This document shows, one piece after another, positions 3,325 to 63,780 of a stretch of DNA of 64,000 nt. Each line of letters begins with the position of its first letter. Within the stretch, counting starts at the first letter, position 1. Source of the DNA: an uncultured bacterium. Its GTDB lineage: Bacteria > Babelota > Babeliae > Babelales > Vermiphilaceae. The translations under genes were made by a program, and so were the position numbers. Location of the stretch: the NCBI GenBank assembly GCA_963713925.1, contig OY970212.1, positions 544,001-608,000 on the forward strand. Reading direction: 5' to 3'. The notes beneath the pieces were generated by a model. That model was not told where the DNA came from. It was given only the letters and a program-made list of their open reading frames with translations, and did no database searches.

Positions 3325-3326
3325 AC

Positions 3327-3710: not shown

Positions 3711-3723
3711 AGGACTGAAAATT

Positions 3724-4110
3724 ATGGGAATGGTCTATTCCGCAAACGCATATCTTGATTTTGAATACAGTCGAGAGAATGTTCGCACAATTATGCGCAA
3801 AGGTGCGTTAATGGGATTCTTTTATGTTAAAGATGAAAAACCAATGTCTCCCGATGAAGCTGCTGATCATGTCATTAATTTTGATTTGCATTATTGTGAT
3901 GTTTTTTTCCAAGACACCGTATTCGCTCTTTTTTTAAGTGATGGAGAATTCGGTTTTTATGTCTCGATGGCGCTTTTTGGCGGTTGGTGGGAAAAGCGAT
4001 ATCAAGGCCAAAATAAATATGATCACGATATGTATAGATATGGCAGATTGTTGTTAGAACTTATTTCTGATTACAAAATGAATCAATTTAGTATTGCTTT
4101 GGAAGAATGA
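3724..4110 (+). CDS. Putative immunity protein (paralogue 2)
   Basis: YSRENV...MGFFY...FQDTVF...WEKRYQG...DMYRY; paralogous to its neighbours. Confidence 0.72.
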   Translation: MGMVYSANAYLDFEYSRENVRTIMRKGALMGFFYVKDEKPMSPDEAADHVINFDLHYCDVFFQDTVFALFLSDGEFGFYVSMALFGGWWEKRYQGQNKYDHDMYRYGRLLLELISDYKMNQFSIALEE

Positions 4111-4159
4111 AGTTCTTTTATTTTGCGAAGATTGTGCCGCTAGTTGATTTTATAGATGA

Positions 4160-4573
4160 ATGAATTTCATGGGTGTAAGTCAAATAAATGAAATTAACGC
4201 ATTGTTATGGGCATTGTACGATAATGGAGCAGATATACCGTATATCATCAATATAGGAAAAACCTTGGGTTTTAAGTATGAAACAGGTGATTTTAGTTTT
4301 GATGACTTTGTGGGTAAGCGCGTCATTGAGTCCTCGAAGTTCAAAGTTTCATTCGAAGGTGCAGAATTTTTTTTGACATTTAAAAATCAAGAAGGTTTTT
4401 TATTGGTTAGCCTGACTCATTTAACTAATGCAAAACAAAGAACATATTTTGGTAAGCAAAATCCTGAAATCGATTGGCCTTACTATATCAAATTGATGCT
4501 CAATTTGCTTGACAACTACATACCGTTCGAATTTAAAACTGGTCCTATTGAATCGGTGGAGGGAAGGTATTAG
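4160..4573 (+). CDS. Putative immunity protein (paralogue 3)
   Basis: NALLW...LGFKY...EIDWPYYIKLM; closest to paralogue 1. Confidence 0.7.
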   Translation: MNFMGVSQINEINALLWALYDNGADIPYIINIGKTLGFKYETGDFSFDDFVGKRVIESSKFKVSFEGAEFFLTFKNQEGFLLVSLTHLTNAKQRTYFGKQNPEIDWPYYIKLMLNLLDNYIPFEFKTGPIESVEGRY

Positions 4574-4576
4574 CAC

Positions 4577-4972
4577 ATGAGTAAAACATATTTTGTGTCT
4601 TGTGATATTGACCTTGAATTCAAGCGAGAAAACCTTTTACAGTTGATGGAAAAGGGGCTTTCAATGGGTTTTAAATATGCACTTGATTCTCGGATCCTTT
4701 TGTTGGAGGAAAGTGCTGATTTTTTTATTAATTTAGATAAAGATAATTTCGAAGATTTTTTTTCAGTGTTATGTGATGGTTCGCAATTTACCATTCGCAT
4801 AACAAAAAAAGATAGCGGGATGTATATTTCACTTATGACGAATCTTTATTGGGAAAAAAAATACAGACAAGACATGCTTACGTATACCCCGGACATTCAC
4901 AGGTTTTCATATCTTCTACTTGACTGGATTTCCACATATAAGCTTAATGAATTTCATATTGATTTTTGCTAA
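4577..4972 (+). CDS. Putative immunity protein (paralogue 4)
   Basis: DLEFKRENL...MGFKY...WEKKY...DIHRF; closest to paralogue 2. Confidence 0.7.
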   Translation: MSKTYFVSCDIDLEFKRENLLQLMEKGLSMGFKYALDSRILLLEESADFFINLDKDNFEDFFSVLCDGSQFTIRITKKDSGMYISLMTNLYWEKKYRQDMLTYTPDIHRFSYLLLDWISTYKLNEFHIDFC

Positions 4973-4976
4973 AACC

Positions 4977-5033
4977 GAAATTCAATATTCTCAGAGCTGA
5001 ATTATTAAAATTCGTTACAAGGTAAGTATATGA
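4977..5033 (+). pseudogene. Relic of a toxin C-terminal tip
   Basis: Reads EIQYSQS*IIKIRYKVSI*, resembling the end of the 11946-13688 toxin (LEVLNRINGKKIKIRY); its TGA overlaps ATG 5030. Confidence 0.55.
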
Positions 5034-5474
5034 ACGAAATTTGGTCAAAATGGATTCCTTTAGCAGGTATAAAGAGTTATTATTACATAATTTCTGTTTC
5101 GATGCGCAAGGATTTGAGGTTATATTAAAAACTTCTAATAATTCTGATAAAACTATCAGAATTTTTTTCGAAAATTCAGTAGATTCTTCTCGCCGAACCG
5201 ATGAAAGTTATGTGGGTGGTATTGTTGGACCGATGGCTGATAAGTATGGAAGAGAGTTTGCTCAATGGCCATTTTTTAAGATTGAAAATTCAGAATATTT
5301 GAAATGGTTTTTTGACACATCAATTGGTATGGCACAAATAAGAGGATGGAAATTTACTCATTTTTCGATTATGGCTCTTGATTCCATGCTTGACATCATC
5401 GCCCCACAGAGCCGGTAGTTGAGTTTATAGATGAAAATGACGAATCGTCTTCACATCTCGCCGATATCGATTGA
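5030..5474 (+). pseudogene. Frameshifted orphan immunity gene, same family as 11094-11949
   Basis: MNEIWSKWIPLAG (cf. MTESWERWEPVSG) in one frame, WPFFKIENSEYLKW...HFSIMALDSMLDII in a second, EPVVEFI in a third. Confidence 0.75.
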
Positions 5475-8371: not shown

Positions 8372-11092
8372 TCACTCATTTTCCACAACTTTCACCATAC
8401 TTCCCTGTGATCCTTTCTCAATGACAAAATGCACCGGGAATTGGTCTTTCATGTTGGGCAGGTGGGAAACAATGATAATTTTTGAGAAATCTTCTTGAAT
8501 TTTGTGAATGGCTTCCATGATATTATTGAGCCCCTCTTCGTCTTGAGAGCCAAAGCCTTCATCGATAATCAATGTTTGCAGTGCAGTGCCTGCTCGCCGT
8601 GCCAGCAGCTTTGAAATGGCAATGCGCAGTGCAAAATCGATGCGGAAAGCCTCGCCGCCGGAGAACATTTCATAGGGGCGAATGCCAACTGAGTCTGAAA
8701 TTTTTATATCAAGTGTTTCTTTTGAACCGCCTTTTTTTAAGTCGCGCAGAGAATCGATAGAGATATGCGATTGGTTGTCTGTGAGCTTTGCAAGTAGGTA
8801 GTTTGCTTCTTGCTCAATTTCAGGAATCACCTCTTCAATCATAAGCGCTTGGATGCCCTCTTTACCGAGCGCGTTGCTCAAAAGTGTGTGATCACTGATC
8901 TCGCGTTCAAGACTTGTCAGTTTTTCTTTACACTCGCCATATTCTTTTTCACTTGCAACTATTTTTGCAATTGTTGCATCGGCGGTGCCTAGTTTTTCAC
9001 GCAGCTGTTCTCGCGCGGATTGGAGTTGCGCACTGTTCGTGTTAATCGTGTTGATGGTTGTAGCGATCTCTTGTAATTGTTGCTCAAGATCTTTCTTTTG
9101 ATCTATTTTTTCCGATAACGCAGTAAGTTGAGCTTTTAATTCTTTTGCTTTTTTGCATACACTGATGCATTCGCGCTTTATCTCATGAGCCGAATCTTTT
9201 TTTGATAGCGCAATTTTGTATGCTTCCAATTGCTCATGAATTTTTGCAAGTTCGGCCAAATGGCTCTTTTGAGCATTGGTAATATGTTCCAGCGAACCGG
9301 TTTCTTTGGTTGCGAGTTCTATGGCACGCGATAATTCTTGCAATTGTGTATTGTTTTTCAGCGATTGTTCACATGCTGTTTCGTACTCTTGCAACTCTTT
9401 TTGTTGAATGCTGACGGCGGTGTGCAGAATAAGCAGTTCTTGGCTCAAGCTTTCATGCTGCTTGTCGAGCATGCTGAGCTGTTGCTCAAGAGCTGCTCGC
9501 TGTTGGCCAAACATCTCATGTCGGCTTCTCAGTTGATAATAAAATTCTTTTCGTTTTTGACGTTCCTGAGCAGTTGTTTCTGCCTCTCCAAGCTCAATTT
9601 TTAGTTGTTTCACAACGGTGCTTAATCGCTTGATCCAATGAACAAGTCGTGCTTTTTGGTCGGAAAATTTTTGTTTTAAAAAGCGACGACGAGCTGCCGA
9701 TAGATTTTGTTCACACAATGGACAACTGGGATCTTCTTCGCCGAGAGACAGGGAATCCTTTTTTTCTAGTTCAAGATATTCTGCTTTGAGCCGTGTGCCG
9801 AGCGTAATAAATTTTTGGCAATATTCTTTCTTTCGTTCAATGTGCTTTTCTTGATCCGTTTCTTGACTCACCGCTTTTTCAAGAGTGGTCAGTTCAAGCG
9901 TTATTTTGGAAAGAGTCGCCACTTTTTCAGCTTGTTCGCGAGTTGCCAATTGACGCGCTTCTTGCAATTTTTGAAGATGCGCCTGCGCAATGGTATATTC
10001 GTTATTCACCTTTGAAGCGGCTTTTCTCTTGGTATCCAATTGAACAAAAAGATCTTCACGCAATTTCGATTCAAGCGTCGTTTTTTTCGCATTTAGATCT
10101 ATGATGGCTTGTTTTTTTTCAAGTAATGTCACCGTTTGCGTGTTCAAAACTGCAAGTTCGGTATTGAGCTCCAACTTTCTTTGCTCTAAATCGTGTGCTG
10201 AGTAAGCCATAGAAACATGAGCTCGCGCTTGATGCCAATTATGGCGCAATTGTTTGACGGTAAGCAGCAGATCATTTTTTTGATTGTTCAAGAGAGCGTG
10301 TGAACGGAGATCGACGGCGAGTGTTTCTGATTCTTTTTGTAATGCATCTTTGCGCGCATACGTTTGTTTGAGCAGCTCTTTGCAGAGCACGTCTTGCTGT
10401 GCGAGTTCTTCAGTTCGTTTTTTTATTTCTTGCAATTCTTTGAGTAAGAGATCTTTATTTTGGATATCGGCTCCGAGTTTTTCTTGCAAAGCGGCCATAT
10501 GCATTTTTGTAATACCCGCCGTCTTGCTTTTTTCAAGAGCTCGCTTTCTTAACGTTTCATACAATTCAAGACCCAAAATGGAAGCAAGAATTTCTTTACG
10601 GTCTTTGGGAGACTTTTGAGAAAATTCGTTTGACTGGCCCTGCTTGAGAAAGGCTGAATTGATGAAGGCTTCATATGAAATGCGAATCACTTTTTCTATG
10701 GTGTCCTGCGTTGCCTTAATCGTTTTGTCAGTGAACGCATGTTCTTGACTCGTTTGATCATCGATAGAACCAAATTCTAAAACACTATATGGCTTGCCAT
10801 AATGATGATGATATTCGCGTTTGATACGATAATGGGTGTCATTGCACATAAAATCAAACGTGATTGTCATGGAATGCTGACCCAGATGAACGAGGCCTTG
10901 ATCAGCCTTGCTTGTCGATCCAGTTTTTCGCGCCTGTCCCCACAGCGCCCAGGTGATTGCATCAAGAAGAGCTGATTTCCCATGGCCATTTTTTCCAGAC
11001 AAACAAATGAGGTTATAGTTTTGAAAATCAATTGTTTGCGTTTCTGGGCCGTAACTTAAGAAGTTTTTGATTTGTATTTTTAAAGGAATCAT
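8372..11092 (-). CDS. sbcC: SbcC/Rad50-like SMC ATPase
   Basis: Walker A GKNGHGKS, Q-loop, coiled coil with CPLC hook, signature FSGGE, Walker B LIIDEGFGSQD, H-loop VSH. Confidence 0.93.
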   Translation of the reverse strand: MIPLKIQIKNFLSYGPETQTIDFQNYNLICLSGKNGHGKSALLDAITWALWGQARKTGSTSKADQGLVHLGQHSMTITFDFMCNDTHYRIKREYHHHYGKPYSVLEFGSIDDQTSQEHAFTDKTIKATQDTIEKVIRISYEAFINSAFLKQGQSNEFSQKSPKDRKEILASILGLELYETLRKRALEKSKTAGITKMHMAALQEKLGADIQNKDLLLKELQEIKKRTEELAQQDVLCKELLKQTYARKDALQKESETLAVDLRSHALLNNQKNDLLLTVKQLRHNWHQARAHVSMAYSAHDLEQRKLELNTELAVLNTQTVTLLEKKQAIIDLNAKKTTLESKLREDLFVQLDTKRKAASKVNNEYTIAQAHLQKLQEARQLATREQAEKVATLSKITLELTTLEKAVSQETDQEKHIERKKEYCQKFITLGTRLKAEYLELEKKDSLSLGEEDPSCPLCEQNLSAARRRFLKQKFSDQKARLVHWIKRLSTVVKQLKIELGEAETTAQERQKRKEFYYQLRSRHEMFGQQRAALEQQLSMLDKQHESLSQELLILHTAVSIQQKELQEYETACEQSLKNNTQLQELSRAIELATKETGSLEHITNAQKSHLAELAKIHEQLEAYKIALSKKDSAHEIKRECISVCKKAKELKAQLTALSEKIDQKKDLEQQLQEIATTINTINTNSAQLQSAREQLREKLGTADATIAKIVASEKEYGECKEKLTSLEREISDHTLLSNALGKEGIQALMIEEVIPEIEQEANYLLAKLTDNQSHISIDSLRDLKKGGSKETLDIKISDSVGIRPYEMFSGGEAFRIDFALRIAISKLLARRAGTALQTLIIDEGFGSQDEEGLNNIMEAIHKIQEDFSKIIIVSHLPNMKDQFPVHFVIEKGSQGSMVKVVENE

Positions 11093-13747: not shown

Positions 13748-13939
13748 TCAAATGTACTTCTTGCAGCTAGTTTTTCGCGCCTGGCCCCAGAGGGCCCAGG
13801 TGATCGCATCAAGGAGCGCCGATTTTCCATGACCATTTTTGCCTGACAAACAAATCAGATTATAATTTTGAAAATCGATTGTTTGTGTCTCAGGGCCATA
13901 GCTTAAAAAATTTTTGATCTGTATTTTTAAAGGAATCAT
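13748..13939 (-). pseudogene. sbcC: Displaced 5' fragment of sbcC (57 codons)
   Basis: First 57 aa identical to SbcC at 11092, then an unrelated tail SCKKYI*. Confidence 0.9.
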
Positions 13940-25828: not shown

Positions 25829-26293
25829 ATGCCGCAATATAAAACACATCTTGCTGGTGGTATCATCGCATTTTTAGTGACCGCCTTTTGCGTATCTCAA
25901 ATGGTACATCCGACGGTTCCGGTGCTTTTTGAATGGATGCTCTGCACGTTAATTGGCTCATTATTTCCCGATGTTGATATCAAAAGCAAAGGGCAGTTGA
26001 GCGTTTATTGGCTGATCAGTTTATTAGTTGGATATTATATTTTGTTTCGGCATGATTATCGTATTGCGGCCTGGATATCTTTTTTAGCATTTTTACCATT
26101 ATTGGTGAGACATCGCGGCATTTTCCACTCATTTACCTTTATTATTTTCATTGAGCTGATCGGCTTTTGTTTCATTGCCATATACGTGCCTCAGGTAGCT
26201 CGCATTGTCGCCTACGATCTCATTTTTTTCACGTCAGGGGTTTTGAGTCACTTGTTGCTTGATTATGGAATAAGAAGATTTTTACGAATCTAG
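25829..26293 (+). CDS. Membrane-bound metal-dependent hydrolase (YdjM-like)
   Basis: YKTH, GSLFPDVD, HRGIFHS, SHLLLD. Confidence 0.88.
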   Translation: MPQYKTHLAGGIIAFLVTAFCVSQMVHPTVPVLFEWMLCTLIGSLFPDVDIKSKGQLSVYWLISLLVGYYILFRHDYRIAAWISFLAFLPLLVRHRGIFHSFTFIIFIELIGFCFIAIYVPQVARIVAYDLIFFTSGVLSHLLLDYGIRRFLRI

Positions 26294-27628
26294 AATACTA
26301 CTATTAATGTACTGTCTTAAAAGAAATAATGAAAACCCATCAGGTCTAATCGGAATCACGTGATTCCGATGGTTGCTTTGCGCGAAAAATATTTTTTTTG
26401 CATATATCCCGGTGGTAAAAGATTCATTTGTTTTTTTATTACGTAATATGAGGGAATCAAGGCCGTTCTCAGCTGAATCAATCGAATTTTGAAATTCGAA
26501 TGTATAATTCGACTGATTATTGTCAGTAATAATATATGTATTACCATTGGATTTAAAAAGAATGCTTGAAGATGTTCCTTTTGATGTGGAGCAGAATTTT
26601 TCATGCGCAGATTTATTACGTGCTTTACAAGTGATAGAGCAATAGAAAGTATTGTGACAATCGAGACATGCAAGTGAGTCATCTGTATCGATATCTTTGT
26701 TACAGGCGCAACAATAATTTCTCAGATCCGCAAGAAGCTTTGGAGTCAGCTCTTGTTCTTCAGCTGCTTGCAACTCTGCTATTTTATATGATCGAGTAAG
26801 ATCTTTCAAAAGGATTTCATGATCTCGGACGTAACCAGATTCCCCGATGGTTGATCTATAATAGGGAGACTGACTGAGGAATTGTGCGATGGGTTTTCGG
26901 TCATTCAAGTCGTTCATAAGCATATGTGAAAGATGCTCAATAAAAAGTGGATGCTCAAGAAGGCCTTTAAAATCTACTCTATAGAGCCGATTTGCGGTAG
27001 TAACGGAACGGTGTATTTTGTCGATGAGTTTTTCATAGCACATACTTCTTAAAGCAAGAAGTGGTGCGGAATATATTCCAATTTCTACCTGTAATTTATC
27101 TAGCTTTGTCTTTGGTCCTTTTAATTTTTTGCCTAACTTTTTCAAGCGGAATAGTTCACTCTCTGTATGAGCCTGTTCAAATACTTTTGTGGCAGAAAAT
27201 GAAAATTGTCGTTTGCTGCTTGGCGGCAATACGCTTAACATTTCTGAAAATGCGATATCTTCTTGTGCAATGAGCATTTTAATTTTTTCCGAATCTATGA
27301 GCGAAGGAATCTGTATGCCGGACGCTCTTTGTGTCAGTGTGATGAGTGCTTGTATCGTGTCCTTGATAGGAGCCTTATGTGGAAGGAACTGGTGACATTG
27401 GTCTATTTCCTTAAGAAGCTCGCTATTTGTTTTGATAAGTGAGTGTATTTCATCGCGCTTTTTTTTGAGTTCTTCAATGCGTGTATTGTAATTTTCCACT
27501 AATTCAAAAGGGTTTGAAAGCTCATCGAGCATGTGTGGGTTGGTTTTTGAAGATTGTTTTGTTTGATCTGCCGCTTGAATAAGGTAAGTTCCAAATGAAA
27601 TCAGAAAAAAAAGAATGTGATATACCAT
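26282..27628 (-). CDS. Secreted coiled-coil protein with MYND-type zinc finger
   Basis: CCACNK...CLDCHNTFYCSITCKARNKSAHEKFC; signal peptide ending IQA. Confidence 0.82.
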   Translation of the reverse strand: MVYHILFFLISFGTYLIQAADQTKQSSKTNPHMLDELSNPFELVENYNTRIEELKKKRDEIHSLIKTNSELLKEIDQCHQFLPHKAPIKDTIQALITLTQRASGIQIPSLIDSEKIKMLIAQEDIAFSEMLSVLPPSSKRQFSFSATKVFEQAHTESELFRLKKLGKKLKGPKTKLDKLQVEIGIYSAPLLALRSMCYEKLIDKIHRSVTTANRLYRVDFKGLLEHPLFIEHLSHMLMNDLNDRKPIAQFLSQSPYYRSTIGESGYVRDHEILLKDLTRSYKIAELQAAEEQELTPKLLADLRNYCCACNKDIDTDDSLACLDCHNTFYCSITCKARNKSAHEKFCSTSKGTSSSILFKSNGNTYIITDNNQSNYTFEFQNSIDSAENGLDSLILRNKKTNESFTTGIYAKKIFFAQSNHRNHVIPIRPDGFSLFLLRQYINSSILDS

Positions 27629-53016: not shown

Positions 53017-53988
53017 ATGAAACTGTTGCAGACACTCATTCTTGGTAGCATTGTTGCGTATCAAACGGTACCTGTTTTTTGCGCCGAAACTAAACCTACG
53101 CTTGAATGGGGCTTTGCCGAACGGCAGGGTCGCCGAAGCGAAATGGAAGACACTCACCTCATTGAAGAGACAGGTCCTTACGCTGTATATGCCATTTTTG
53201 ACGGACATGGCGGAACTCGCGCTGCCCGTTATTCAGCTTTGAGCCTAAAAAAGGCAACCAGCATAAAAGGAGGCAATGTTACTCCGGATATGCCATTTCC
53301 AACATTAGATATCATGACAAAATGGACGCGTGGCGTGGAAGTTATGCTGAGTTTTATGGCTGCATCTGGAAAAGAAGCGAACCAAGCGAAGCCCGACTCC
53401 GGAACCACCATGATTTCAGTTTTTGTGGATAAAAAAACGAATGAGGCTCGTCTTTTTTGGGCCGGTGATTCCCGAGCCATTGTTGTTCGCAATGGAAAAG
53501 TTATTCTTGCGACAGAGGATCATACATTGAATGTCCCTGCCGAAGCAGAAAGAGCTCAAAGATTAGGTGCAGTAGTAGAAAATGGTCGCATCACGAACAA
53601 GAAACTCGGGCTGCGCATTGCCATGACTCGTTCAATCGGAGATCTCAATATTAAGGAGGGTGCCCCAGCGGTTATTTCAGAACCTGAAGAGAACTCGATA
53701 CAATTACAAAAAAATGATTGGTTGGTAATCGCGTGTGACGGTTTGTGGGATGTCGTTTCCAATGACGTCGTAGCGTCTTTTGTAACAAATAATAATCCGC
53801 GGCCCGTTGATGATAATAAATTGCCAAAGGAAGGTTTTTTTGAGGGTCGACCGATGTTTTTTCCTAAAAATGCAACGGATACCGCTTCTTCTGAGGGAAC
53901 ACTCAAAGGAATGGCCCAGGCTCTGCGAGATCTCGCCTTTAACAAGGGAAGCCTCGATAATATTTCCGTTATCGTCGTAAAAATATAA
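53017..53988 (+). CDS. PP2C-type Ser/Thr phosphatase with signal peptide
   Basis: QGRRSEMED, IFDGHGG, SGTT, AGDSR, DH, TRSIGD, ACDGLWD, GSLDNISV. Confidence 0.92.
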   Translation: MKLLQTLILGSIVAYQTVPVFCAETKPTLEWGFAERQGRRSEMEDTHLIEETGPYAVYAIFDGHGGTRAARYSALSLKKATSIKGGNVTPDMPFPTLDIMTKWTRGVEVMLSFMAASGKEANQAKPDSGTTMISVFVDKKTNEARLFWAGDSRAIVVRNGKVILATEDHTLNVPAEAERAQRLGAVVENGRITNKKLGLRIAMTRSIGDLNIKEGAPAVISEPEENSIQLQKNDWLVIACDGLWDVVSNDVVASFVTNNNPRPVDDNKLPKEGFFEGRPMFFPKNATDTASSEGTLKGMAQALRDLAFNKGSLDNISVIVVKI

Positions 53989-54071: not shown

Positions 54072-54905
54072 ATGAAAACTCAAGTGAAAACGATAGTAAA
54101 AGCAATATTAGTCGGTATCGGCATGTGTGCGGCTGCATATGGATTCGTTATTTCAGGATTATGGAATCGAGTTGCCATTTCTTCAACACTGGTCTATCCG
54201 ATTTTGGTGTGCGAAAATGCATTGGTCAAGCCGATAAAATCGTTTTTTCAAAGACGTAAAAATGAAAATGAATTGCGCGTTGAGCTTGAGAATATCAGAA
54301 AAGAGCGGAATGCCCTTTCTGCTGAAGTCAGCGGACTCAAGACGCTCATTGCCTATCATCATGATGTTGATGAACTGATCGAATTTAAAGCTCGCTATCT
54401 GACTGAAAAAGCACGAGTATGCCAAATTATTTCAAAGCAGATTGACGCTCAACAACATTCCATTTTGGTTGACGCCGGCAGCCGCAAAGGGGTCAAGGTT
54501 GATATGGTCGCAGTTTATAATAATGCAATTGTTGGACGCGTGAGTGAAGTCTATCCGCTCTATTGCAAAATCGTCTTGGCTACCGATGCACGGTGCAAAA
54601 TCGGAGCATTGGAAATAAATACGAAAGCATGCGGCATTTATTGTGGAAAAAATACGCTGAACGTAGCTCGCCTTGAACAAGTAAGCCATTTATCAAACGT
54701 AGCGCAGAATGATACGATTCTTTCCTCGGGAGAAGGATTGATATTCCCTCGAGGGTTTTCGTTGGGCACCATCAAAACATATTCCAAAAACGGGTTGTTT
54801 TATGATATCGAACTTCAACCATCAGTTGATATTAATGTATTGGAATATTGCTTGCTCATTGATCATGACGGGGCATATTTAAATACGTTACGTAACAATG
54901 CTTAA
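54072..54905 (+). CDS. mreC: Rod shape-determining protein MreC
   Basis: TM + coiled coil + VDAGSRKGV, IVGRV, SSGEGLIFPRG. Confidence 0.85.
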   Translation: MKTQVKTIVKAILVGIGMCAAAYGFVISGLWNRVAISSTLVYPILVCENALVKPIKSFFQRRKNENELRVELENIRKERNALSAEVSGLKTLIAYHHDVDELIEFKARYLTEKARVCQIISKQIDAQQHSILVDAGSRKGVKVDMVAVYNNAIVGRVSEVYPLYCKIVLATDARCKIGALEINTKACGIYCGKNTLNVARLEQVSHLSNVAQNDTILSSGEGLIFPRGFSLGTIKTYSKNGLFYDIELQPSVDINVLEYCLLIDHDGAYLNTLRNNA

Positions 54906-55277
54906 TAGTGCAGCTCCCCCAAGAATAATAGCTCCTGTTGCTGCACCAATTTTCATAGTAGTTATACCGTCTTTGGGGTTATTTGAGTACGCAGTAATAG
55001 GGAGACTAATCCAGAGTCCCACATATGCTCCTCCAAAACCACCCACTGTAGTGGCAAAAATGCCGTTAGCAATCCGATCAGACAGAGTAAGTTTTTCATC
55101 TGAATTTCCATCACGACTGGAGCAATAGAACTTTCTTTGCATATCATTACACTTTTTCATTGCTTGTTGAGATGCGACTTTTCTTACATAACTATTTTGC
55201 ATACGTTGCAACATGGCATGTGAATGGGAAATAGAGCAAAGGGATATCGATAAAAATAAGATCTGCTTGATATTCAT
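54888..55277 (-). CDS. Secreted glycine-zipper protein (paralogue B)
   Basis: N-terminal 35 aa identical to 55286-55810; GGFGGAYVG and GAATGAIILGG helices. Confidence 0.75.
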   Translation of the reverse strand: MNIKQILFLSISLCSISHSHAMLQRMQNSYVRKVASQQAMKKCNDMQRKFYCSSRDGNSDEKLTLSDRIANGIFATTVGGFGGAYVGLWISLPITAYSNNPKDGITTMKIGAATGAIILGGAALLSIVT

Positions 55278-55285
55278 ATACTTCC

Positions 55286-55810
55286 TTATTTTGTTTCAGA
55301 AGAAGGCTTACGAATAAGGTCATCTCTAAAAATAGCTGCTAAGATTGCTGCGGAGGTAGCTGCAGTGGAAACTGCTCCTATAGGTCCAGCTACCAATCCA
55401 GCCGCAGTGAAGGCACCGAGCAACGCGCAGCTGTTTGAAGCCTTAGCTTCGAAGGCATGAAAAGCAAGCTGTTGGTCAAGTGCGCTATCATATTTTTCAT
55501 TCGAAAAATAACTGTACGGAATAGTGGAATTGCGAGCCAGAACGAACCCTAAACCATATCCAATTGCACCACCGGGAATGGCAAAAATAGGTCCTAAAAA
55601 AGATTGAGCAAGGGGTGTTTCAAAAGGTGATAGTTCTTCTGTTTTTTTCGATTGTGTAATATTGGTAGAACACAGTCTTTGTTGGTTAGACAATGCTTTT
55701 TGGAGAGCGACTTTTCTTACATAACTATTTTGCATACGTTGCAACATGGCATGTGAATGAGAAATTGAGCAAAGGGATATCGATAAAAATAAGATCTGCT
55801 TGATATTCAT
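55286..55810 (-). CDS. Secreted glycine-zipper protein (paralogue A)
   Basis: Signal peptide ending SHA; GGAIGYGLG and GAFTAAGLVAGPIGA helices. Confidence 0.75.
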   Translation of the reverse strand: MNIKQILFLSISLCSISHSHAMLQRMQNSYVRKVALQKALSNQQRLCSTNITQSKKTEELSPFETPLAQSFLGPIFAIPGGAIGYGLGFVLARNSTIPYSYFSNEKYDSALDQQLAFHAFEAKASNSCALLGAFTAAGLVAGPIGAVSTAATSAAILAAIFRDDLIRKPSSETK

Positions 55811-55869
55811 ATATTTCCTTCTTTTAAATGACTACGAATTTGCAGAGCAGTGTAAACATTTATAAAGTA

Positions 55870-55929: not shown

Positions 55930-56847
55930 TTACATCATCATTTTCGACGAGTTACCATAACGTTGCTCGATTCTATTCAGCAATGCATCGCTGAATTTTG
56001 CAAAAACGCCATCTTCATCATCGCTGCCGCTTGCAAGCATGGAGATAAAGCCTTGTTTTTTAGCCGGATGCACCCAGACAATATCGCCTTCGATCATTCC
56101 CTTTTCTTTAATCCAGGCAATTGCGTCTGATGAGGTGCCGAGTTTATCAATGAGTTTGAGTTTTTCTGCTTGGCGGCCGGTGAATATTTTGCCTTCGCCC
56201 CAAACAGCTCGATCTTTGAGATCAAGTTTGCGCGCAGTTGCGATATCTTGTGCAAATTGGTCATACGCATCATCAAGCACACTTTGGAGCAATTCACGCT
56301 CAGCTTGAGACATATCTTTGAGCGGATCGGTCATAGTCTTGTAAGCACCTGCTTTGAGGCCGACCGTTTTAATCTTGTATTGATCCAAAAACTCTTTCAG
56401 TTGGAACATGTAAGGAAATGCAGTTCCGATGCTTCCGACCATTGCTGATCCAGGAGCAATAATCCAGTCAGTTGCGCTGGCAATATAGTAGCCGCCGGAA
56501 GCGCACATATTTTCCACCAAGGTCATGATCGGTTTTGGGTATTGCTGTTTGAGCGCGATGATCTCTTGGTAGATTGCCTGGCCGGTGCCCGCTGCGCTAC
56601 CTGGGCATTCCATTTTTATCAAAATTGCTTTAATGTTGGGGTCTTTGAAAAATTCATGCAATTGACCTTGGTATTTATTTGAGTCGTATAATACCCCTTT
56701 AATATCAACAACCCCGACATGCTCGCGGACCTCTACATTCACCGAATACCACTCTTTGGCCTTTTGAATGAGCGTCGGTAAAAAGGAAAGGGCGATAAAT
56801 ACAAGAATGATGTTAAAAAAGCTTTTGAAAGTGCTCGATACTGACAT
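55930..56847 (-). CDS. sppA: Signal peptide peptidase SppA
   Basis: ASGGYYIA, VGSIG, AGAYKT, GKIFTG...LIDKLG. Confidence 0.92.
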   Translation of the reverse strand: MSVSSTFKSFFNIILVFIALSFLPTLIQKAKEWYSVNVEVREHVGVVDIKGVLYDSNKYQGQLHEFFKDPNIKAILIKMECPGSAAGTGQAIYQEIIALKQQYPKPIMTLVENMCASGGYYIASATDWIIAPGSAMVGSIGTAFPYMFQLKEFLDQYKIKTVGLKAGAYKTMTDPLKDMSQAERELLQSVLDDAYDQFAQDIATARKLDLKDRAVWGEGKIFTGRQAEKLKLIDKLGTSSDAIAWIKEKGMIEGDIVWVHPAKKQGFISMLASGSDDEDGVFAKFSDALLNRIEQRYGNSSKMMM

Positions 56848-56968: not shown

Positions 56969-56990
56969 TCTTGGAGTCTTTGGAATAAAT

Positions 56991-57067
56991 GGGCGGTTAG
57001 CTCAGCTGGTTAGAGCATCAGTCTTACAAACTGGGGGTCACAGGTTCGAATCCCGTACCGCCCACCA
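56991..57067 (+). tRNA. tRNA-Val(TAC)
   Basis: GGGCGGT/ACCGCCC stem, CTTACAA loop, CCA. Confidence 0.95.
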
Positions 57068-57090
57068 TTAGTTCAAAAGTTGATATTTAT

Positions 57091-57166
57091 TCCTCGGTAG
57101 CTCAGTTGGTAGAGCACACGACTGTTAATCGTTAGGTCGCAGGTTCGAGTCCTGCCCGAGGAGCCA
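57091..57166 (+). tRNA. tRNA-Asn(GTT)
   Basis: TCCTCGG/CCGAGGA stem, CTGTTAA loop, GCCA. Confidence 0.95.
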
Positions 57167-57294
57167 GTCTTCGCCAAGTCATCCTTTGGGTGCCTCGGCT
57201 TCGCCTGGCTCAAGTGCCGCCACTGCTTGGCTAGGGATTAAGTTTTTTAGCATAGGTGCATTGGCACAGCCAGAAATTAAGGCAAAAAAATTAT

Positions 57295-57371
57295 GGGGCT
57301 GTAGCTCAGTTGGTTAGAGCGTCCGCCTGTCACGCGGAAGGTCGCGGGATCGAGGCCCGTCAGCCCCGCCA
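57295..57371 (+). tRNA. tRNA-Asp(GTC)
   Basis: GGGGCTG/CAGCCCC stem, CTGTCAC loop, GCCA; atypical T-loop ATCGAGG. Confidence 0.92.
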
Positions 57372-57575
57372 TACTTCGCCAAGGCTTTGTATGGCAGGCC
57401 ATCCTTAGCAAAAGTATGGACATAATTAAGATTTTAAGGCAATTCAGAAATGAGTTGCCTTTTTTATGTGTTTTATCACGCCATAGCCTTGGCGAAGGCG
57501 GATTGCAATCATTTCCAATCCATGTTATAAACTGAGCAATCAACAGCGTTGAAATATACAAAAAGGAGTTCATCA

Positions 57576-59519
57576 ATGTTTATAACAGTTCTCTTTTCAC
57601 TACTCTTTTATAATTCGCTCTTTTCATACAATCCCGATAATCCTGAAATACCTTTTATTCCTGAAGAACCTGAAAAACCGCTTTACAATCCTCAACATAC
57701 TGATGATATTTATCGTGAATTCGGTATCGGGCAGTATGGTAATCGAAGAAAGTGGTTGAATCTTAATTGGGTAAGTAAAGATTCAGCTCTTTTTGAACGG
57801 CATAGAGAATGTAAGAATTGGTCACAAAAAGAATATGTTGTGGCAATAATTCATCAATGTTGTAATGAAGTTTCATTCCGAGATGATGATAGTGCTTCTC
57901 TCAACGGATACAATCTTTTTTACTCTGACGGTAGAAGACATTTTTATCTTCACCGTAATGATGAAGATCAGATTTTGAATCAAGCCGATTTGTATGAGTA
58001 TCAAGAATTTAGAAATATGGCGAGCTTTTTGGCCGGTTATAAAAATAAAATCCGCCAATTGTATTCGCTCATTCAATCGAATCAAAATGTACGAAATCAA
58101 TTGCGTCAGAATGCCATACGAGCAATTGAACAGCAGTATGAGGCTGTTCAACAACAAGAAGCCGCACGAGAGAAAGCTATAAGAGATTGGCAAGAGCAAG
58201 AAGCGCGCATAGAACAACAAGAGGTGGCTGCCAAAAGATTGCGTGAAGAACAAGAAGCATTCAGAAAACTTGGAGCTAAACGAACTGAAATCAGAAACAC
58301 TTTTAACGACCACTTAGCAGTTATCAAAAGTGAATCACAATCGTGGAATGATCTATCTGATATCACTCGTGAGTATAGTTTGTCATACGAACATCTTGAT
58401 AAACGAAACTCCGCGCTTGAAGCGATGAATAATGTAGGCGCAGTCTATACACAATCAAATTATGAGTTGAGTACTCCCATCGGTGGGATAATCAGTGAGT
58501 TTAATTATAATCCGAACACATTCACAACCAATTATGGCAATCAACTGCAACAGGTGGTTCATACAGAATGTATCGATATTTTAGGGCGTACAGCACAGTT
58601 GAATTTGGATGATTGCTTGTATGGTTACAGAGGGGATTTTGTTGATTGTATTGATGCGTCACGAGAATTTAATCAACTCGGACTAACTCACAAATCAACG
58701 GCAATTAATGATTTTTGTTGGACTATGCTTGATATCGGACAGGCAATGGGTAAAGGCGCGTGCCTCGGTGTATATTATGCGGCATATGATTTGGCGACTC
58801 ATCCCTTTCAAACGGGTCTTTGTCTTCTTGCCGGACAATATGTGTTGGCGTATCAAGCATGCAAGATTGCTTATGCGGTGGCTGATATTGCGATTACCTC
58901 ATGTTATGACAAAAGAACTGCTTATGAAAAGCTCGATTCCTATTTAGCGCCCGTTGATGCGTTGTTGACGCAATTTGAAAAAGGGGTTTCGGCAGCTCAG
59001 ATTGCTGGAACCGCAACGCAAGTAGCTGTTGGATACTATGCTCAGGGCAGGATGCTCAAAGGATTGAATTCTATTTATAGCAAGGCTCGAGTCAAGGCAG
59101 TTGATTTTATCAAGAGGTATCCACAAGCAGAACCGGAGCTATTTTTGACAACGCCTGAAGGAATGTTGTTGAAAAGTTCGGTTAATGAAGGTGGACATCA
59201 TTTTCCGCAACCTAATTCAGGTGCGGGAACATCGAAACCGAATTTCCTTGAAGAAGCTTTAAATAGAATAGATGTTAATAAAATTCGACATATTTTCAAC
59301 AAATCGGAACACAATTTGGCACCTCTTGTGAAAAAATTAGGTGGAAATGAAAACGTTATCAAAGAAGTTCTTCTGGCGCTTGAGGGAAAAATTCCGCAAA
59401 GCGGATTGTTTAAAGAGATTCCCGTTTCAGTGGGAGGATATATCGTTCATGTAAGGGGCATGGTTATAGATGGAATTCCTCGTATTGGAACACTTTTTAT
59501 AAAACCGGAGAATGTTTAA
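57576..59519 (+). CDS. Signal-peptide polymorphic toxin
   Basis: RBS aggag; signal peptide; coiled coil; helical core resembling the 1137-3324 protein; toxin-like tip HIFNKSEHNL...VRGMVIDGIPRIGTLF; abutting small downstream gene. Confidence 0.75.
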   Translation: MFITVLFSLLFYNSLFSYNPDNPEIPFIPEEPEKPLYNPQHTDDIYREFGIGQYGNRRKWLNLNWVSKDSALFERHRECKNWSQKEYVVAIIHQCCNEVSFRDDDSASLNGYNLFYSDGRRHFYLHRNDEDQILNQADLYEYQEFRNMASFLAGYKNKIRQLYSLIQSNQNVRNQLRQNAIRAIEQQYEAVQQQEAAREKAIRDWQEQEARIEQQEVAAKRLREEQEAFRKLGAKRTEIRNTFNDHLAVIKSESQSWNDLSDITREYSLSYEHLDKRNSALEAMNNVGAVYTQSNYELSTPIGGIISEFNYNPNTFTTNYGNQLQQVVHTECIDILGRTAQLNLDDCLYGYRGDFVDCIDASREFNQLGLTHKSTAINDFCWTMLDIGQAMGKGACLGVYYAAYDLATHPFQTGLCLLAGQYVLAYQACKIAYAVADIAITSCYDKRTAYEKLDSYLAPVDALLTQFEKGVSAAQIAGTATQVAVGYYAQGRMLKGLNSIYSKARVKAVDFIKRYPQAEPELFLTTPEGMLLKSSVNEGGHHFPQPNSGAGTSKPNFLEEALNRIDVNKIRHIFNKSEHNLAPLVKKLGGNENVIKEVLLALEGKIPQSGLFKEIPVSVGGYIVHVRGMVIDGIPRIGTLFIKPENV

Positions 59520-60062
59520 ATGTGGAAACAGCAGCTTAGGAAACTTGAACAAAATAAAAAATGGGATGAGGGTATTTCTCTGCTTCAAGATGTTCTTGCG
59601 AAAAATCAGAATGATCTTGATGCATATATATGCCTGAATTATTTACTTATTAACTTGTTGATAGAAGAGGATTTTGATGACTCTAAACATGATTTTTATG
59701 CTCGGACGGCAAAGCAAGCCTTTGTCGATTCCTTCCAAAAATTTCATGATAATGCAGAATATTTATTTTTTACTGCAATTACCTGTTATATAGCGGAATA
59801 TTATTATGATCTTGATTTTTCACAAGTTCAAGCGATGATTCGAAGAGCGGTAGAGCTTGACCCTGAAAATATTTTGTATAAATGGGGCTATTATTTATAT
59901 TTACATCAAAACAATCCGGAGCACGCTAAAAAAGGTCTCCCGTATGCACATATTATACTTGATAAGCATTCTCGAGAGCATAAGTATCTGGAATCAAAGG
60001 GCGCAATAGGATTTTATATTCTCGATATTATGCAAAACTCTACGAAAGAGCTTTCCAATTAA
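59520..60062 (+). CDS. Putative immunity protein (helical/TPR-like)
   Basis: ATG immediately after the toxin TAA; RAVELDPEN TPR-like motif. Confidence 0.68.
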   Translation: MWKQQLRKLEQNKKWDEGISLLQDVLAKNQNDLDAYICLNYLLINLLIEEDFDDSKHDFYARTAKQAFVDSFQKFHDNAEYLFFTAITCYIAEYYYDLDFSQVQAMIRRAVELDPENILYKWGYYLYLHQNNPEHAKKGLPYAHIILDKHSREHKYLESKGAIGFYILDIMQNSTKELSN

Positions 60063-61582
60063 ATTCCTTTCATAAAGGGGGTTCGTTTGAATGTATTCCA
60101 TCTGAAAGTTCGAAGTGTGCCCAAAGTGAGCCGCCATAGTAGTCTATCGGCGGAATTAAGTATCAAATCGAAGGGCGAATGTGCGATGTAGAGCACATTT
60201 TCACCTTCGATTTTTAAGTTCGATAGAACAAGTGCAATTAACTGCCTCTTTTCTTCCACTTCCGAACTTTCAAAAAGATCATACGCACGGCTTACAAGAT
60301 CCAGTACATATTTTGCAGTCGTATAGTAGTTATCTTCAGCATCTTGTAATTGGCTCATGCGAGCTGCCAATTGTGCGCTTTCATCACGGAATGATTGGTA
60401 AAATCTGTCATATTCGCTCTCAGTAATTCTCCCGCGGAGTTTATCAAGGTACAAATTATCCATCATTTTGGTTACGTTTTTTTGTTCCTTTGTGATCTTT
60501 TCATATTCCTTGTTATGGAAATCTATTTTGTTTTGATGAACTTCATCTAATGTGCCCTTTATTTCTGCAAGGATGTCAGCTGGAACTTGGAGCCTTCTAA
60601 ATACAGAACGCAGTTGTTCAGTGACCTCTTCTTCACGAAGCCATTTAGCGCCATGCTTGCCTTTATATTGGGTGCAATGGTAGTAGACATTTCCTTTTTG
60701 TTCTTCTGCGGTGATGGCACAGTCGCAGTGTGCGCAACGAAGCATGCCTCGGTATATGAAAGGCTTGCCGGCAAATTTAAACGGCTTCTTATTAAAACCT
60801 TCGCGCACTTGTTTTGCTTGGTCATAAAGGGAAGGTGAGATGATGGTTGGGTAGCGATGTGGATATTCCTTTCCTTTCACGAGCATAACGCCATGAAAGA
60901 AAGGATTTTTCAAGATTTTACCCATTTGGCTTTTGGGCCATTTCAACCCATGTTCTGAATTTATCTTTTGCACTAATACCTCAGTCGAGTAAGTGCCGGA
61001 TGCATAGAGTTCAAATATTTTTCTGATGATATGGGCTGAATATTCATCAACAATGATATCCGTTGCTCCATTTTCTCGTTTTATATTTTTATACCCAAAG
61101 GGTGCTTTTGAAAGCCATTCGCTTTTGCGGAGCTTTTGCTCTTGGGCCCTTTTAACGTTGTCACTAATGGCATCCGAATAATATTTGGCCAATCCAAGGC
61201 TGATGCTAAATTGAAACTTTTCAACGGCGGAGATGCGGCTTGTGATCACTTGCCCATCAGAGACGAAATGAAGCTCGAGTTGATCACTGAGGGCTTTGTC
61301 ATAAAGAACTGAAATTCGCTTATCAAAGACGTTTCTTGAAAGGCGATCTACTTTATCGCAGCACACGGCAATCTTTTCAGGCTGATTGATTATAAGGTCA
61401 ATAATCCCATCAAATTCAGTACGATCGTCGGTATAGGCACTTTCATCAAAGCTGTAGACTTCCTGAATGGTAAAGCCTTTGTTCTGGCAATACTTTTCGA
61501 GCCGTGCCACCTGGGCGGGCAGAGAATTGCCGGCTTCTTTTTGTTCTTCTGTGCTGACGCGCGCTATTAGGATTGCTTTCAT
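60059..61582 (-). CDS. Large serine recombinase (integrase type)
   Basis: ARVSTEEQ catalytic Ser motif, DRLSRN, APFGY, zinc ribbon CAHC...YYHC, coiled coil. Confidence 0.93.
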   Translation of the reverse strand: MKAILIARVSTEEQKEAGNSLPAQVARLEKYCQNKGFTIQEVYSFDESAYTDDRTEFDGIIDLIINQPEKIAVCCDKVDRLSRNVFDKRISVLYDKALSDQLELHFVSDGQVITSRISAVEKFQFSISLGLAKYYSDAISDNVKRAQEQKLRKSEWLSKAPFGYKNIKRENGATDIIVDEYSAHIIRKIFELYASGTYSTEVLVQKINSEHGLKWPKSQMGKILKNPFFHGVMLVKGKEYPHRYPTIISPSLYDQAKQVREGFNKKPFKFAGKPFIYRGMLRCAHCDCAITAEEQKGNVYYHCTQYKGKHGAKWLREEEVTEQLRSVFRRLQVPADILAEIKGTLDEVHQNKIDFHNKEYEKITKEQKNVTKMMDNLYLDKLRGRITESEYDRFYQSFRDESAQLAARMSQLQDAEDNYYTTAKYVLDLVSRAYDLFESSEVEEKRQLIALVLSNLKIEGENVLYIAHSPFDLILNSADRLLWRLTLGTLRTFRWNTFKRTPFMKGI

Positions 61583-61769
61583 AATGATGCCTCTGCTAGA
61601 GATGAACCGTTTTATCGGCTAGCAGTGTATCATAAGCACGAGATTTCGATAGGAATTTTCGGTGGGGATGGTGGATGTTTGACACTGGTTGCTTATCATA
61701 TTAGGATTAATATTATGAGTAATTTGCGTTGTTAAATTTTATCATAAATATAATTGTAATAGGGATGCT

Positions 61770-62084
61770 ATGAAAAAAATATTGATTGCTTTTTTGGTGT
61801 TGACAATGCAAGTTGCAGTTGCAGAACTTTCTTATGATTCAAGAACGGGAAAATATTATTCGAAAAATGCACCCAGAAATATCAATCAAATCGAATACAA
61901 TGAACTTGCAGTTGTTTTTTTTAAAAGAATAAATAAAATACAGAACATTGTGCCAGGGGCTGAGATAGCAGGCGCTTTTGGAATGCTAAGAATGGTCGGA
62001 ACACCCACTGCTTTGCATTTGATTAAAGATTTAAAAGCTTGGTTCGAAGCAATAAATAACGATATGAAAGATATTGGTATATAA
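61770..62084 (+). CDS. Small secreted hypothetical protein
   Basis: Signal peptide MKKILIAFLVLTMQVAVA. Confidence 0.7.
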   Translation: MKKILIAFLVLTMQVAVAELSYDSRTGKYYSKNAPRNINQIEYNELAVVFFKRINKIQNIVPGAEIAGAFGMLRMVGTPTALHLIKDLKAWFEAINNDMKDIGI

Positions 62085-62098
62085 TCAAGGTTGCTTTC

Positions 62099-63196
62099 TT
62101 AGGATCGTGTTTTTTTAATGATAATTTTTTTGATGAAGGAAAGTGGAGATTGACTGATAGCGAGTTGGATGTCGTTTACTTCTGCCATCAGTCGAGACAA
62201 GGTTCTTTGATTTGAAACAGTAAGCATAGCTTGTAATTCTCTTATATTCAGAGCATCCATTACTTTCTTTAACCCGTAAATCTGCAACACCCGTCTCAAA
62301 CTCAGGTCAGGATTATAGAATATCAAATCGGCTAACAATGCTTTGCCGTCGGCTTTATAGTCGATTAACGTTGAACGTTTTCTTTCCACTTCATCGATGT
62401 AGTGACAGAGCACGCTTTTCGATATCGCGGGCTTGAAGAGTTTTTTAAATGAGAGATCACTCTTTATCCCGAGCTTGGTAAACAGTTGCTTCATTTTCTG
62501 CCGCTTGTTCAATCGAACTTCCATGCGCAAGACTTCTAATTTCTTTTTTCCATCAAGCGGAGGGAGGAAGTTCATTTGTATAGCATTATCTTTTTCCAGG
62601 CTTCATCTTTCGCTCTTCTTAGCCATGTGTAGATCTTTAATCTTGTCATAAAAAACCACCTCATAAGAATTACAATGCCATTTGTAGCTATGTCCTTCGT
62701 TACGGTAATCCGTTTGGTTGGTATCCAACGAGCGTTTGACGTTGGCCTCTTTTATCTTATTTATGTAATGGTAAGGGGTTGAGCCATCCGAGAGGATTAT
62801 GTTTTTTGAGTAATGGATGGTCAATACGGGTGCTTTTGCAAGTTCGGCGGTAGTTGTGACAACCCCCATGTCGGCAAGCACGGCGGCTAATTTTTCGACT
62901 AATCGATTGAAATCTTTGAATCTAAGCTCATGAAAGTTATTTCCAAAAAAGAGCTTAGGTAATGAGAGATCTATCTTGAGCATGATTTCTTGTCGGCCCG
63001 CGAGATTAGTTCTCCGAGCCAATGTAAGCCGTGGCTTATAAATGCCGGCAGCTAATTCTTTTTGTGTTGGATTTTGCTTGGATAAGATGCCCGATGTTGA
63101 TCGATCCAGCACCCACCGGGCGGATGGTTTGAACTTTTCAACATTCGTAACCTGAAAAGAATCTGAACCCAGAAGAAGAACTATCGTATCTATCAT
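62099..63196 (-). pseudogene. Phage/plasmid replication initiator-like gene with one in-frame TGA
   Basis: MIDTIVL...PRLT...SLPKLFFGNN...IHYSKN...FYDK...VLRMEVRL; ORFs 62603-63217 and 62099-62575 share a frame, joined as SER*SLEKDNAIQM. Confidence 0.75.
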
Positions 63197-63449
63197 GATC
63201 TGCCTTGCTATGAACAAATGCTGTGTGCATAAAAGATACCGTAGATACGGAGAAATAAAAAGGCTCGCTGCCTAAACGAGCCTTGATGGAGGTTATTTTT
63301 GTTTTAGATTTTGATTTACGAGTTGATTTGGTCTTTTTATCTTTGTTGACGCGCTTATCAACTTCCATAAGCAACATAACAAACGAAACCAAACGATTAC
63401 GATCATCGATCGACAAAGTCATTTTTATGGATTCTTTCTTCAAAGCCAT
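63138..63449 (-). CDS. Small basic hypothetical protein
   Basis: Lys-rich ORF immediately upstream of and overlapping the Rep gene. Confidence 0.45.
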   Translation of the reverse strand: MALKKESIKMTLSIDDRNRLVSFVMLLMEVDKRVNKDKKTKSTRKSKSKTKITSIKARLGSEPFYFSVSTVSFMHTAFVHSKADHDRYDSSSSGFRFFSGYEC

Positions 63450-63780
63450 AACTGCTTTCAGAGATATAAAATGTAGAGCTTATAAAGCTCACAATAACGT
63501 ATATTAATAAATTGGATGATGGGTGGATGAATCTTAGCTCTGTGTGAGACTATATTCGCGCCATAAAAAGAACAGACACGGTTTGTGGGCTGTAGTGACG
63601 TGCGATTGGTTCATTGTTATCTCCTTGGTGTCGATGCTTTTACTACTTCGAAGAAATAATAACGAGGAATATTGATAAAATCAAGCGGAAAACTTTTGTT
63701 TTATCCCATTGCGTCTTCTTGTTTTGTTACTTACCTTGTACTTAATATTGAATTAATCTATTTCAAAAAAGAGGTTTTTA

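Follow-up and report, generated by a model that had tools for sequence, protein, structure and literature searches.

Tandem, apparently secreted proteins of a Babeliales bacterium with presequence-like leaders behind predicted Sec signal peptides

We analyzed a 64,000-nucleotide window (contig OY970212.1, positions 544,001 to 608,000, assembly GCA_963713925.1) of the genome of a bacterium of the order Babeliales (Babelota/Dependentiae), likely a parasite of protists, and focused on two tandem genes, designated A and B, that encode small, apparently secreted proteins. An earlier note on this DNA had described the two genes as sharing a near-identical 5' block before diverging, and this is what we observe. 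Each gene encodes a predicted signal peptide, a basic presequence-like leader and a series of hydrophobic segments rich in small residues, placed as follows in window coordinates.

55286..55810, minus strand: gene A, 174 residues, with predicted signal peptide, presequence-like leader and Gly/Ala-rich hydrophobic segments
55748..55810, minus strand: predicted Sec signal peptide of A, residues 1-21, ending S-H-A (heuristic)
55664..55747, minus strand: presequence-like leader of A, Met22 to Thr49, with Leu at position 2 and no acidic residue, ending R-L-C-S-T
55535..55591, minus strand: hydrophobic segment 1 of A, residues 74-92, with small-xxx-G-xxx-small motifs
55328..55432, minus strand: hydrophobic segments 2-3 of A, residues 127-161, weakly hydrophobic
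54888..55277, minus strand: gene B, 129 residues, laid out as gene A; 18 nt at its 3' end are shared with the convergent mreC
55215..55277, minus strand: predicted Sec signal peptide of B, identical in protein sequence to that of A (heuristic)
55116..55214, minus strand: presequence-like leader of B, Met22 to Ser54, with one Asp, ending R-K-F-Y-C-S-S
55008..55064, minus strand: Gly-rich hydrophobic segment 1 of B, residues 72-90
54894..54950, minus strand: C-terminal hydrophobic helix of B, residues 110-128, a possible stop-transfer segment in the bacterium
55691..55825, minus strand: repeat copy 1, 135 nt, ribosome-binding site and first 35-40 codons of gene A
55811..55825, minus strand: upstream end of repeat copy 1, the purine-rich ribosome-binding site of gene A
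55158..55292, minus strand: repeat copy 2, ribosome-binding site and 5' codons of gene B; the ribosome-binding site overlaps the stop codon of gene A, with an 8-nt gap between the genes

Genes A and B and their shared 5' block

The two copies of the block (55158-55292 and 55691-55825) form a direct repeat of 135 nt with 93% identity. Codons 1-35 encode identical residues in A and B, with three synonymous and no non-synonymous changes, and divergence begins at codon 36; beyond the shared block the proteins do not align (blastp from residue 39 onward, E=0.59; payload z=1.2). A ribosome-binding site precedes Met1 in both genes, and the overlap of that of B with the stop codon of A suggests that translation of B may be coupled to that of A. 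A scan for promoters and terminators gave matches at chance level. The earlier note had proposed a reusable 110-bp cassette and a genome search for further copies; the DNA block occurs only twice in the whole single-contig genome (1,318,721 bases; 1.32 Mb), in A and B, and what is reused across the genome is the leader architecture.

For both proteins, cleavage at S-H-A|M is predicted heuristically. The signal peptides fit Sec export and signal peptidase I, with Lys4, an uncharged core and S-H-A before Met22, and carry no canonical lipobox. Behind the site, the leader of A runs for 24 residues to R45 with five K/R and no D/E, followed by L-C-S-T, and that of B for 27 residues to R48 with six K/R and one D, followed by K-F-Y-C-S-S, in agreement with the earlier description of basic, nearly acid-free leaders ahead of Gly-rich hydrophobic segments. 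Mitochondrial presequences are defined in the available text of PMC7723863, and in general terms in that of PMC4585086; an Arg-rich, acid-poor N-terminus of ~15-60 residues is present in A and B, but only after the predicted signal cleavage. Position 2 of the leader is Leu in both. The acid-free run from residue 22 spans 36 residues in A and 23 in B, lengths reached by 1.5% and 6.7%, respectively, of the 539 signal-peptide-like proteins of the genome, and the hydrophobic moment of the leaders (0.63) lies at the 87th percentile of secreted proteins. Residues 3-55 of B are modelled as helical, with a predicted local distance difference test score (pLDDT) of 74-79 over residues 21-40; overall, the predicted structures of A and B are poor (mean pLDDT 54.6 and 48.2), and Foldseek with these low-confidence models gave no match at E<=0.001. 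The helices of A are weakly hydrophobic, which suits passage through Sec.

The pair is flanked by two genes outside the system:

54072..54905, plus strand: mreC (Pfam MreC)
55930..56847, minus strand: gene for an sppA-type S49 peptidase

Among 11 corresponding loci in relatives, sppA lies directly beside mreC in six, unrelated genes stand between them in two and the arrangement differs in three. The direct adjacency in six of these loci points to a lineage-specific insertion of the A/B pair, which likely arose by tandem duplication with similarity kept in the targeting block only. Eleven secreted gene pairs of this genome have similar 5' ends; the payloads are unrelated in A/B and in two pairs that carry no presequence-like leader, and a second presequence pair has its own shared 5' block and weakly related payloads. 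Since pairs of the non-presequence kind also share 5' blocks, such sharing appears to be a general habit of tandem duplication here. A second tandem presequence-like pair is found at 347038-347965 of the genome contig, with a signal and leader block of 123 nt at 89% identity and a payload consisting of a coiled coil and a C-terminal membrane helix. In contigs from a soil sequencing run, which may be the source sample, parts of the A and B payloads are matched exactly and the repeat is not covered.

A class of leader-bearing secreted proteins and its homologues

Our own gene caller returned 1361 genes for the genome, and a signal-peptide heuristic selected the 539 mentioned above, among which 55 show Met as the first residue past a plausible site of cleavage. 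Twelve of the 55 passed a rule for presequence-like leaders. Of the other signal-peptide proteins, for which each plausible site was tried, 18 of 470 passed (p=1.1e-5); so did 39 of 707 N-termini that are not secreted and 129 of 4814 Met positions inside proteins, and shuffled sequences passed 2.3 times on average and at most 8 times in 2000 rounds. A six-frame scan gave 42 matches to the rule, 27 of them in called genes. Removal of the 15 uncalled matches and of six housekeeping-like false matches, and addition of one open reading frame (ORF) of 50 residues, left a set of 22 members. About five of these are doubtful and one more paralogue was found later, so we put the class at about 17-20, and the leader thus recurs on about 17-20 unrelated payloads. 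Throughout the class, and in the homologues outside the genome, the upstream 21 codons have the character of a signal peptide. At 1303680-1305208 of the genome contig, an ORF of 50 residues with signal and leader precedes a 403-residue ORF paralogous to class member 105896; the two are probably a broken gene.

Relative to the comparison sets, class leaders are enriched in Arg (11% vs 4.6%) and depleted in Asp and Glu (2.6% vs 11.9%), with an R:K ratio of 1.26 vs 0.62 and an unremarkable Ser content (7.8% vs 7.7%). Most members end in R-x(0-1)-[FYL]-x(0-2)-[ST]. A broad Arg-aromatic-Ser/Thr end motif occurs in 17 of 22 leaders compared with 6.8 in shuffles, whereas the corresponding Lys control (8 of 22 vs 6.7) is close to expectation; a strict R-x-[FYL]-[SA] motif occurs in 6 of 22 compared with 1.85 expected (P=0.008), the motif script having misplaced Met in 2 of the 22. 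The ends of A and B are of the R-2/R-3 type only in the sense of the broad, post hoc motif. Yeast presequences favour Leu, Phe, Ile or Trp at position 2, according to passages of PMC10482271. These residues occupy position 2, a feature that is not part of the class-defining rule, in 9 of 16 basic leaders and in 5 of 39 other proteins with Met at +1 (p=0.002).

Pfam assigned domains above cut-off to four of 20 payloads (Band-7, AAA with Lon lid, M48 peptidase and DnaJ) and none to the other 16. Eight of the members, A and B among them, are small and contain hydrophobic segments; the glycine-zipper family PF05433 was matched by only one of these eight, below cut-off (E=1.1). A profile of six small-membrane members, leader included, retrieved two new outside proteins among 1.84 billion, both with Met-Leu basic leaders and Gly-rich helices, and their payloads scored above all shuffles in a payload-only test. 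In 200 relatives the same profile gave three weak matches, one of which resembles a member and two of which do not. The Lon payload lacks the protease domain, stands alongside two full-length Lon genes and scores about equally against bacterial and mitochondrial Lon. A protease-less Lon AAA module behind a basic leader occurs separately in the relative G024. These secreted modules (787691-788911 of the genome contig; L245:7684-8868 in G024) are without N-domain and protease domain, and from their sequences they could be a decoy or an unfoldase acting on host mitochondrial Lon. Eight Lon-like matches were seen in another relative, G052, against two in most relatives.

The Band-7 payload provides what we consider the best independent evidence for the leader class, as judged from sequence comparison. 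Its homologues came from a search with the whole protein, in which the domain dominated, and were not used to define the class. The payload and nine close homologues form one clade in a quick tree of 58 rows, with an SH-like approximate likelihood ratio (SH-aLRT) support of 98. All nine homologues carry a signal peptide, Met and a leader of 21-32 residues with 4-9 K/R and 0-1 D/E, in place of the membrane anchor that stands at the start of housekeeping QmcA both in this genome and in relatives. In all nine, an Arg lies 20-21 residues before the conserved motif of the domain and is followed at R+2 by Phe, Tyr, Leu or Met, so that, together with the payload of this genome, the Arg is fixed in 10 of 10 leaders; position 2 is Leu or Phe in seven of nine. 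Pairwise identity is 30% in the leaders, which cannot be aligned, and 71% in the domains. Conservation of general properties and of one position while the sequence varies is as expected of targeting peptides. The clade is rare: at E<=1e-100, members occur in 2 of the 261 genomes of the phylum. In a metagenome scan, 80 loci came up at 34-43% identity; going by the one that was read, they are apparently ordinary Band-7 genes. A relative from another family, G049, has a separate long-branch QmcA copy with a leader. In a second protein family, signal peptide, Met and a leader with R-x-Y-S are present in both paralogues of this genome and, by eye, in none of six homologues in relatives.

Proposed targeting and competing explanations

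We think it probable, with real room for doubt, that the leader of A and B is a mitochondrial presequence masked behind a Sec signal peptide, the proteins being exported by the bacterium and then imported by the TOM/TIM23 machinery of the host. The bipartite targeting suggested in the earlier note thus gains support from the genome-wide class and from homologues outside the class definition. Sec export and cleavage by signal peptidase after residue 21 would create a Met-Leu N-terminus like that of a host precursor. Release into the host cytosol could then occur through machinery of the type II secretion kind or through outer-membrane vesicles, and import through TOM/TIM23 would be followed by removal of the leader by MPP/Icp55 at an R-2/R-3 site. 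Finally, the Gly/Ala helices of the two proteins, which are weakly hydrophobic, might lodge in the inner membrane and oligomerise, so that the mitochondrion feeding ATP to the ADP/ATP translocases of the parasite would be reshaped or tapped. We infer from the sequences that the payloads may be membrane-active, as the earlier note had it; their oligomerisation in the inner membrane, with reshaping or tapping of the mitochondrion, is the least supported step, a guess that we consider unlikely to be right.

The relative G107, listed in the same order as this genome, encodes a protein with an N-terminal stretch of 91 residues identical to P0007, a sequence attributed at its source to 'Candidatus Babeliales bacterium'. 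The genome analyzed here encodes ADP/ATP translocases, two secretins, two ATPases of type II secretion systems or pili, two Omp85 proteins and pilin-like proteins. TatC, VirB4 and FHIPEP (the export gate of type III secretion) were not found in the single contig, which is 95.75% complete; the control for the TatC search was positive in 11 of 14. This gene content agrees with what is published for Dependentiae. According to passages of PMC4776705, two copies of gspD occur in all TM6 genomes examined, and one secretin/ATPase set may correspond to a type IV pilus. Type II secretion is given as the only system for secretion found in Babela (available text of PMC4378268), and some cargo of Chlamydia is described as using Sec and type II secretion (excerpts of PMC6717882). 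In the accessible part of PMC6561590, signal peptides are reported on 44% of the genes of Chromulinavorax, the replication bodies of which are wrapped by the host mitochondrion that the isolate remodels; the only candidate named there for the mitochondrial effect is a mitofilin-like protein.

A broader reading, which we hold tentatively and regard as nearly as plausible as its opposite, is that some Babeliales run a mitochondrial effector programme. About 20 proteins would enter through TOM/TIM23 without type III or type IV injection, including a repurposed QmcA, a Lon AAA ring, an M48 peptidase and a J-domain protein besides small glycine-zipper proteins such as A and B; the leader would have been gained repeatedly in separate lineages, and the programme would be the basis of mitochondrial remodelling by Dependentiae. 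In this programme the QmcA, Lon AAA, M48 and J-domain payloads would mirror the quality-control set of the mitochondrial inner membrane, namely SLP-2, LONP1, OMA1 and Pam18/Mdj1.

A number of observations weigh against mitochondrial import of A and B. Examples from this genome had already been viewed when the presequence rule and the broad motif were formulated, and the strict R-x-[FYL]-[SA] motif is absent from both A and B. Full-length homologues of either protein were not found outside their own genome (22 candidates checked; none in 60 relatives). Against the small-membrane profile, the payload of A scores no better than its own reversed sequence and the score of B is reached by 6 of 300 shuffles, so that common ancestry with the group is not shown. 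In hydrophobicity, the last helix of B exceeds 62% of the 106 single-pass controls, strong enough that B could stall in the bacterial inner membrane. Type II systems export folded proteins, whereas TOM needs unfolded ones. The tests in relatives are also adverse. When frozen and applied to 200 kb from each of 12 relatives (2.4 Mb), the rule showed no enrichment (11 of 267 vs 14 of 564, p=0.20), and neither the end motif (8 of 19 vs 5.8) nor the position-2 bias (4 of 29 vs 14 of 236) was significant. Enrichment had been predicted beforehand for one relative, G107, and failed there (1 of 11 vs 2 of 41), in a weak test that sampled about 107 kb of 1.2 Mb; the sole match resembles an acyltransferase and is likely a false positive. 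A leader profile built from this genome found no match in G107, G181 or G053.

Clear single examples of the leader do exist in G017, G053 and G014, and four tandem genes and an M48 gene in G107 resemble class members by eye. In unrelated bacteria (77 loci, three possible kin left out), the frozen rule matched 0 of 7 and 3 of 90. The class is pronounced in this genome and within the Band-7 clade and sporadic elsewhere, and the rule is crude. The four tandem paralogues of G107 (L393:2617-6613) have a layout of the stop-transfer kind, with a signal peptide, a long basic leader with two Arg motifs, an acidic linker and a single membrane helix; two of them are without Met at +1.

It is conceivable, but in our judgement improbable, that A and B are retained in the bacterial envelope as small inner-membrane or periplasmic proteins, with the leader acting as an amphipathic membrane-binding helix or a propeptide and its presequence likeness incidental. 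The last helix of B is hydrophobic enough for stop-transfer, the leader is predicted to be helical, an amphipathic helix could stand in for the lost anchor in the Band-7 clade, and the tests on held-out genomes were not significant, all of which would agree with retention. Left unexplained, however, are the forced Met at +1 and the Leu/Phe/Ile bias at +2, the end motifs that are specific for Arg but not for Lys, and the Arg fixed in every one of the ten unalignable Band-7 leaders. The same leader also precedes soluble payloads such as the Lon AAA module, which needs ATP, and the periplasm is not known to contain any. Secretion into the host with another address (nucleus or nucleolus, plastid, parasite vacuole membrane or mitochondrial surface, or a cleavage motif of the Plasmodium export element (PEXEL) or RxLR kind) appears to us quite improbable. 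Basic leaders are generic, some in relatives resemble nuclear localization signals, and most members of the Band-7 clade read R-x-[FYL]-x-D, a pattern similar to the export motifs of eukaryotic parasites. In the Band-7 clade, however, the Asp that follows the site is part of the conserved start of the domain, and the class leaders are rich in Arg, at the R:K ratio given above, rather than in Ser, most having the Arg-[FYL]-[ST] type of end. Transit peptides and presequences are described as similar, but the former as low in N-terminal Arg, in the available text of PMC7723863, the latter point arguing against a plastid address.

Two further explanations concern the reading of the genes themselves. 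Translation might begin at the internal Met22, leaving the upstream 21 codons unused, and our gene caller did choose Met22 for both A and B; or the shared block might be an artefact of assembly or of recent duplication without function, the repeat being bridged by no contig. We consider either case very unlikely in view of the ribosome-binding sites before Met1 in both genes, the signal-peptide-like nature of the 21 codons throughout the class and in the outside homologues, and the restriction of differences between the copies to three synonymous sites over 35 codons. The K/R-R-x-F-hydrophobic pattern of the Band-7 clade resembles the consensus for twin-arginine translocation (Tat), but it follows a Sec-type peptide and is not succeeded by a hydrophobic h-region. 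With TatC not found in this nearly complete genome and the search control positive, Tat export is largely refuted and hardly credible, and it was rejected.

Comparison with known systems and other observations

The likeness to the Tim17/Mgr2 family proposed in the earlier note did not hold up at the level of kinship. Tim17/Tim22/Tim23 and Romo1/Mgr2 are, like A and B, small proteins with Gly-rich hydrophobic helices, but A and B match none of them in Pfam or PDB profile searches, and Tim17-family proteins are not known to carry a cleavable presequence.

According to PMC2824752, Ats-1 of Anaplasma phagocytophilum has an N-terminal cleavable presequence and is imported into host mitochondria, to the matrix or inner membrane, but it is one single effector and a substrate of type IV secretion. 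In the present genome, by contrast, the leader stands behind a predicted Sec signal peptide and would be exposed only by cleavage, about 17-20 genes are concerned, and VirB4 and FHIPEP were not found. MceC (CBU1425) of Coxiella burnetii (partial text of bioRxiv 10.1101/2020.05.28.121236), with ~16 kDa, a predicted signal peptide, two glycine-zipper segments and insertion into mitochondrial membranes, is similar to A and B as compared by description only, but is delivered by a type IV secretion system and is described as being without a classical targeting sequence. The CTP1 family of rust fungi (sections of bioRxiv 10.1101/019521) likewise comprises secreted, modular and polymorphic parasite proteins with a cleavable host-type transit peptide; it differs in belonging to a eukaryotic pathogen, in being directed mainly to the chloroplast and in having no Met-recreating bacterial signal-peptidase site.

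The Band-7 payload of this genome is QmcA-like, with 8z5g as the best PDB match. Eukaryotic SLP-2 is built with a presequence in place of the anchor, and the anchor swap seen here parallels it. Capture of a host gene is not supported: the best matches are bacterial, so the payload looks like a repurposed bacterial paralogue, the tree containing no eukaryotic SLP-2. If the proposed targeting is correct, a membrane-anchored QmcA turned presequence-bearing would repeat a change made by mitochondrial proteins after endosymbiosis.

Full-text searches, with most subscription papers and all supplements outside their coverage, returned no description of a Sec signal peptide followed by a presequence in Babelota or other bacteria, and the passages returned by term searches of Babelota papers do not mention one. 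Because the leader would be masked until cleavage, prediction tools applied to full-length proteins would probably not detect it. The double address bears on how Babelota, a widespread phylum of protist parasites, manipulate host mitochondria. It yields a list of candidate mitochondrial effectors that is testable in yeast without culturing the bacterium, and, if the assignment is true, cleavable presequences can be borne by cargo of Sec and type II secretion, not only by type III and type IV effectors.

Met at +1 after predicted cleavage is found in 267 of ~860 secreted proteins in the 12 relatives, 55 of 539 in this genome and 7 of 105 in unrelated bacteria. In the relatives these proteins mostly begin Met-Glu or Met-Asp; Met at +1 may mimic host N-termini of the NatB type and let secreted proteins survive in the host cytosol. 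In genomes of family f16 (L255, L256, L258 and L259), secreted M48-like proteins begin with Met, a short basic stretch and a weak Gly-rich helix, a layout reminiscent of mitochondrial outer-membrane signal anchors.

Elsewhere in the window, a cluster of genes for tRNA-Val, tRNA-Asn and tRNA-Asp at 56990-63450 is followed by a secreted 647-residue ORF, a tetratricopeptide-repeat-like ORF and a serine recombinase (60059-61582), likely an integrated element; a similar recombinase adjoins mreC in G013 (L135). The first ~60 residues of a 906-residue SbcC-like ORF recur in a 63-residue ORF 2.7 kb away (8372-11092 and 13748-13939), and these repeats flank a secreted 580-residue ORF and two small paralogues, suggesting an insertion accompanied by duplication of the gene start. 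At 1828-5418, a 498-residue ORF with no Pfam match precedes five paralogue-like ORFs of 120-135 residues, an arrangement resembling a polymorphic toxin with an immunity array. Finally, secreted proteins with eukaryote-like domains are encoded at 53017-53988, with a PP2C phosphatase, and at 26282-27628, with a weak, below-cut-off match to a MYND finger.

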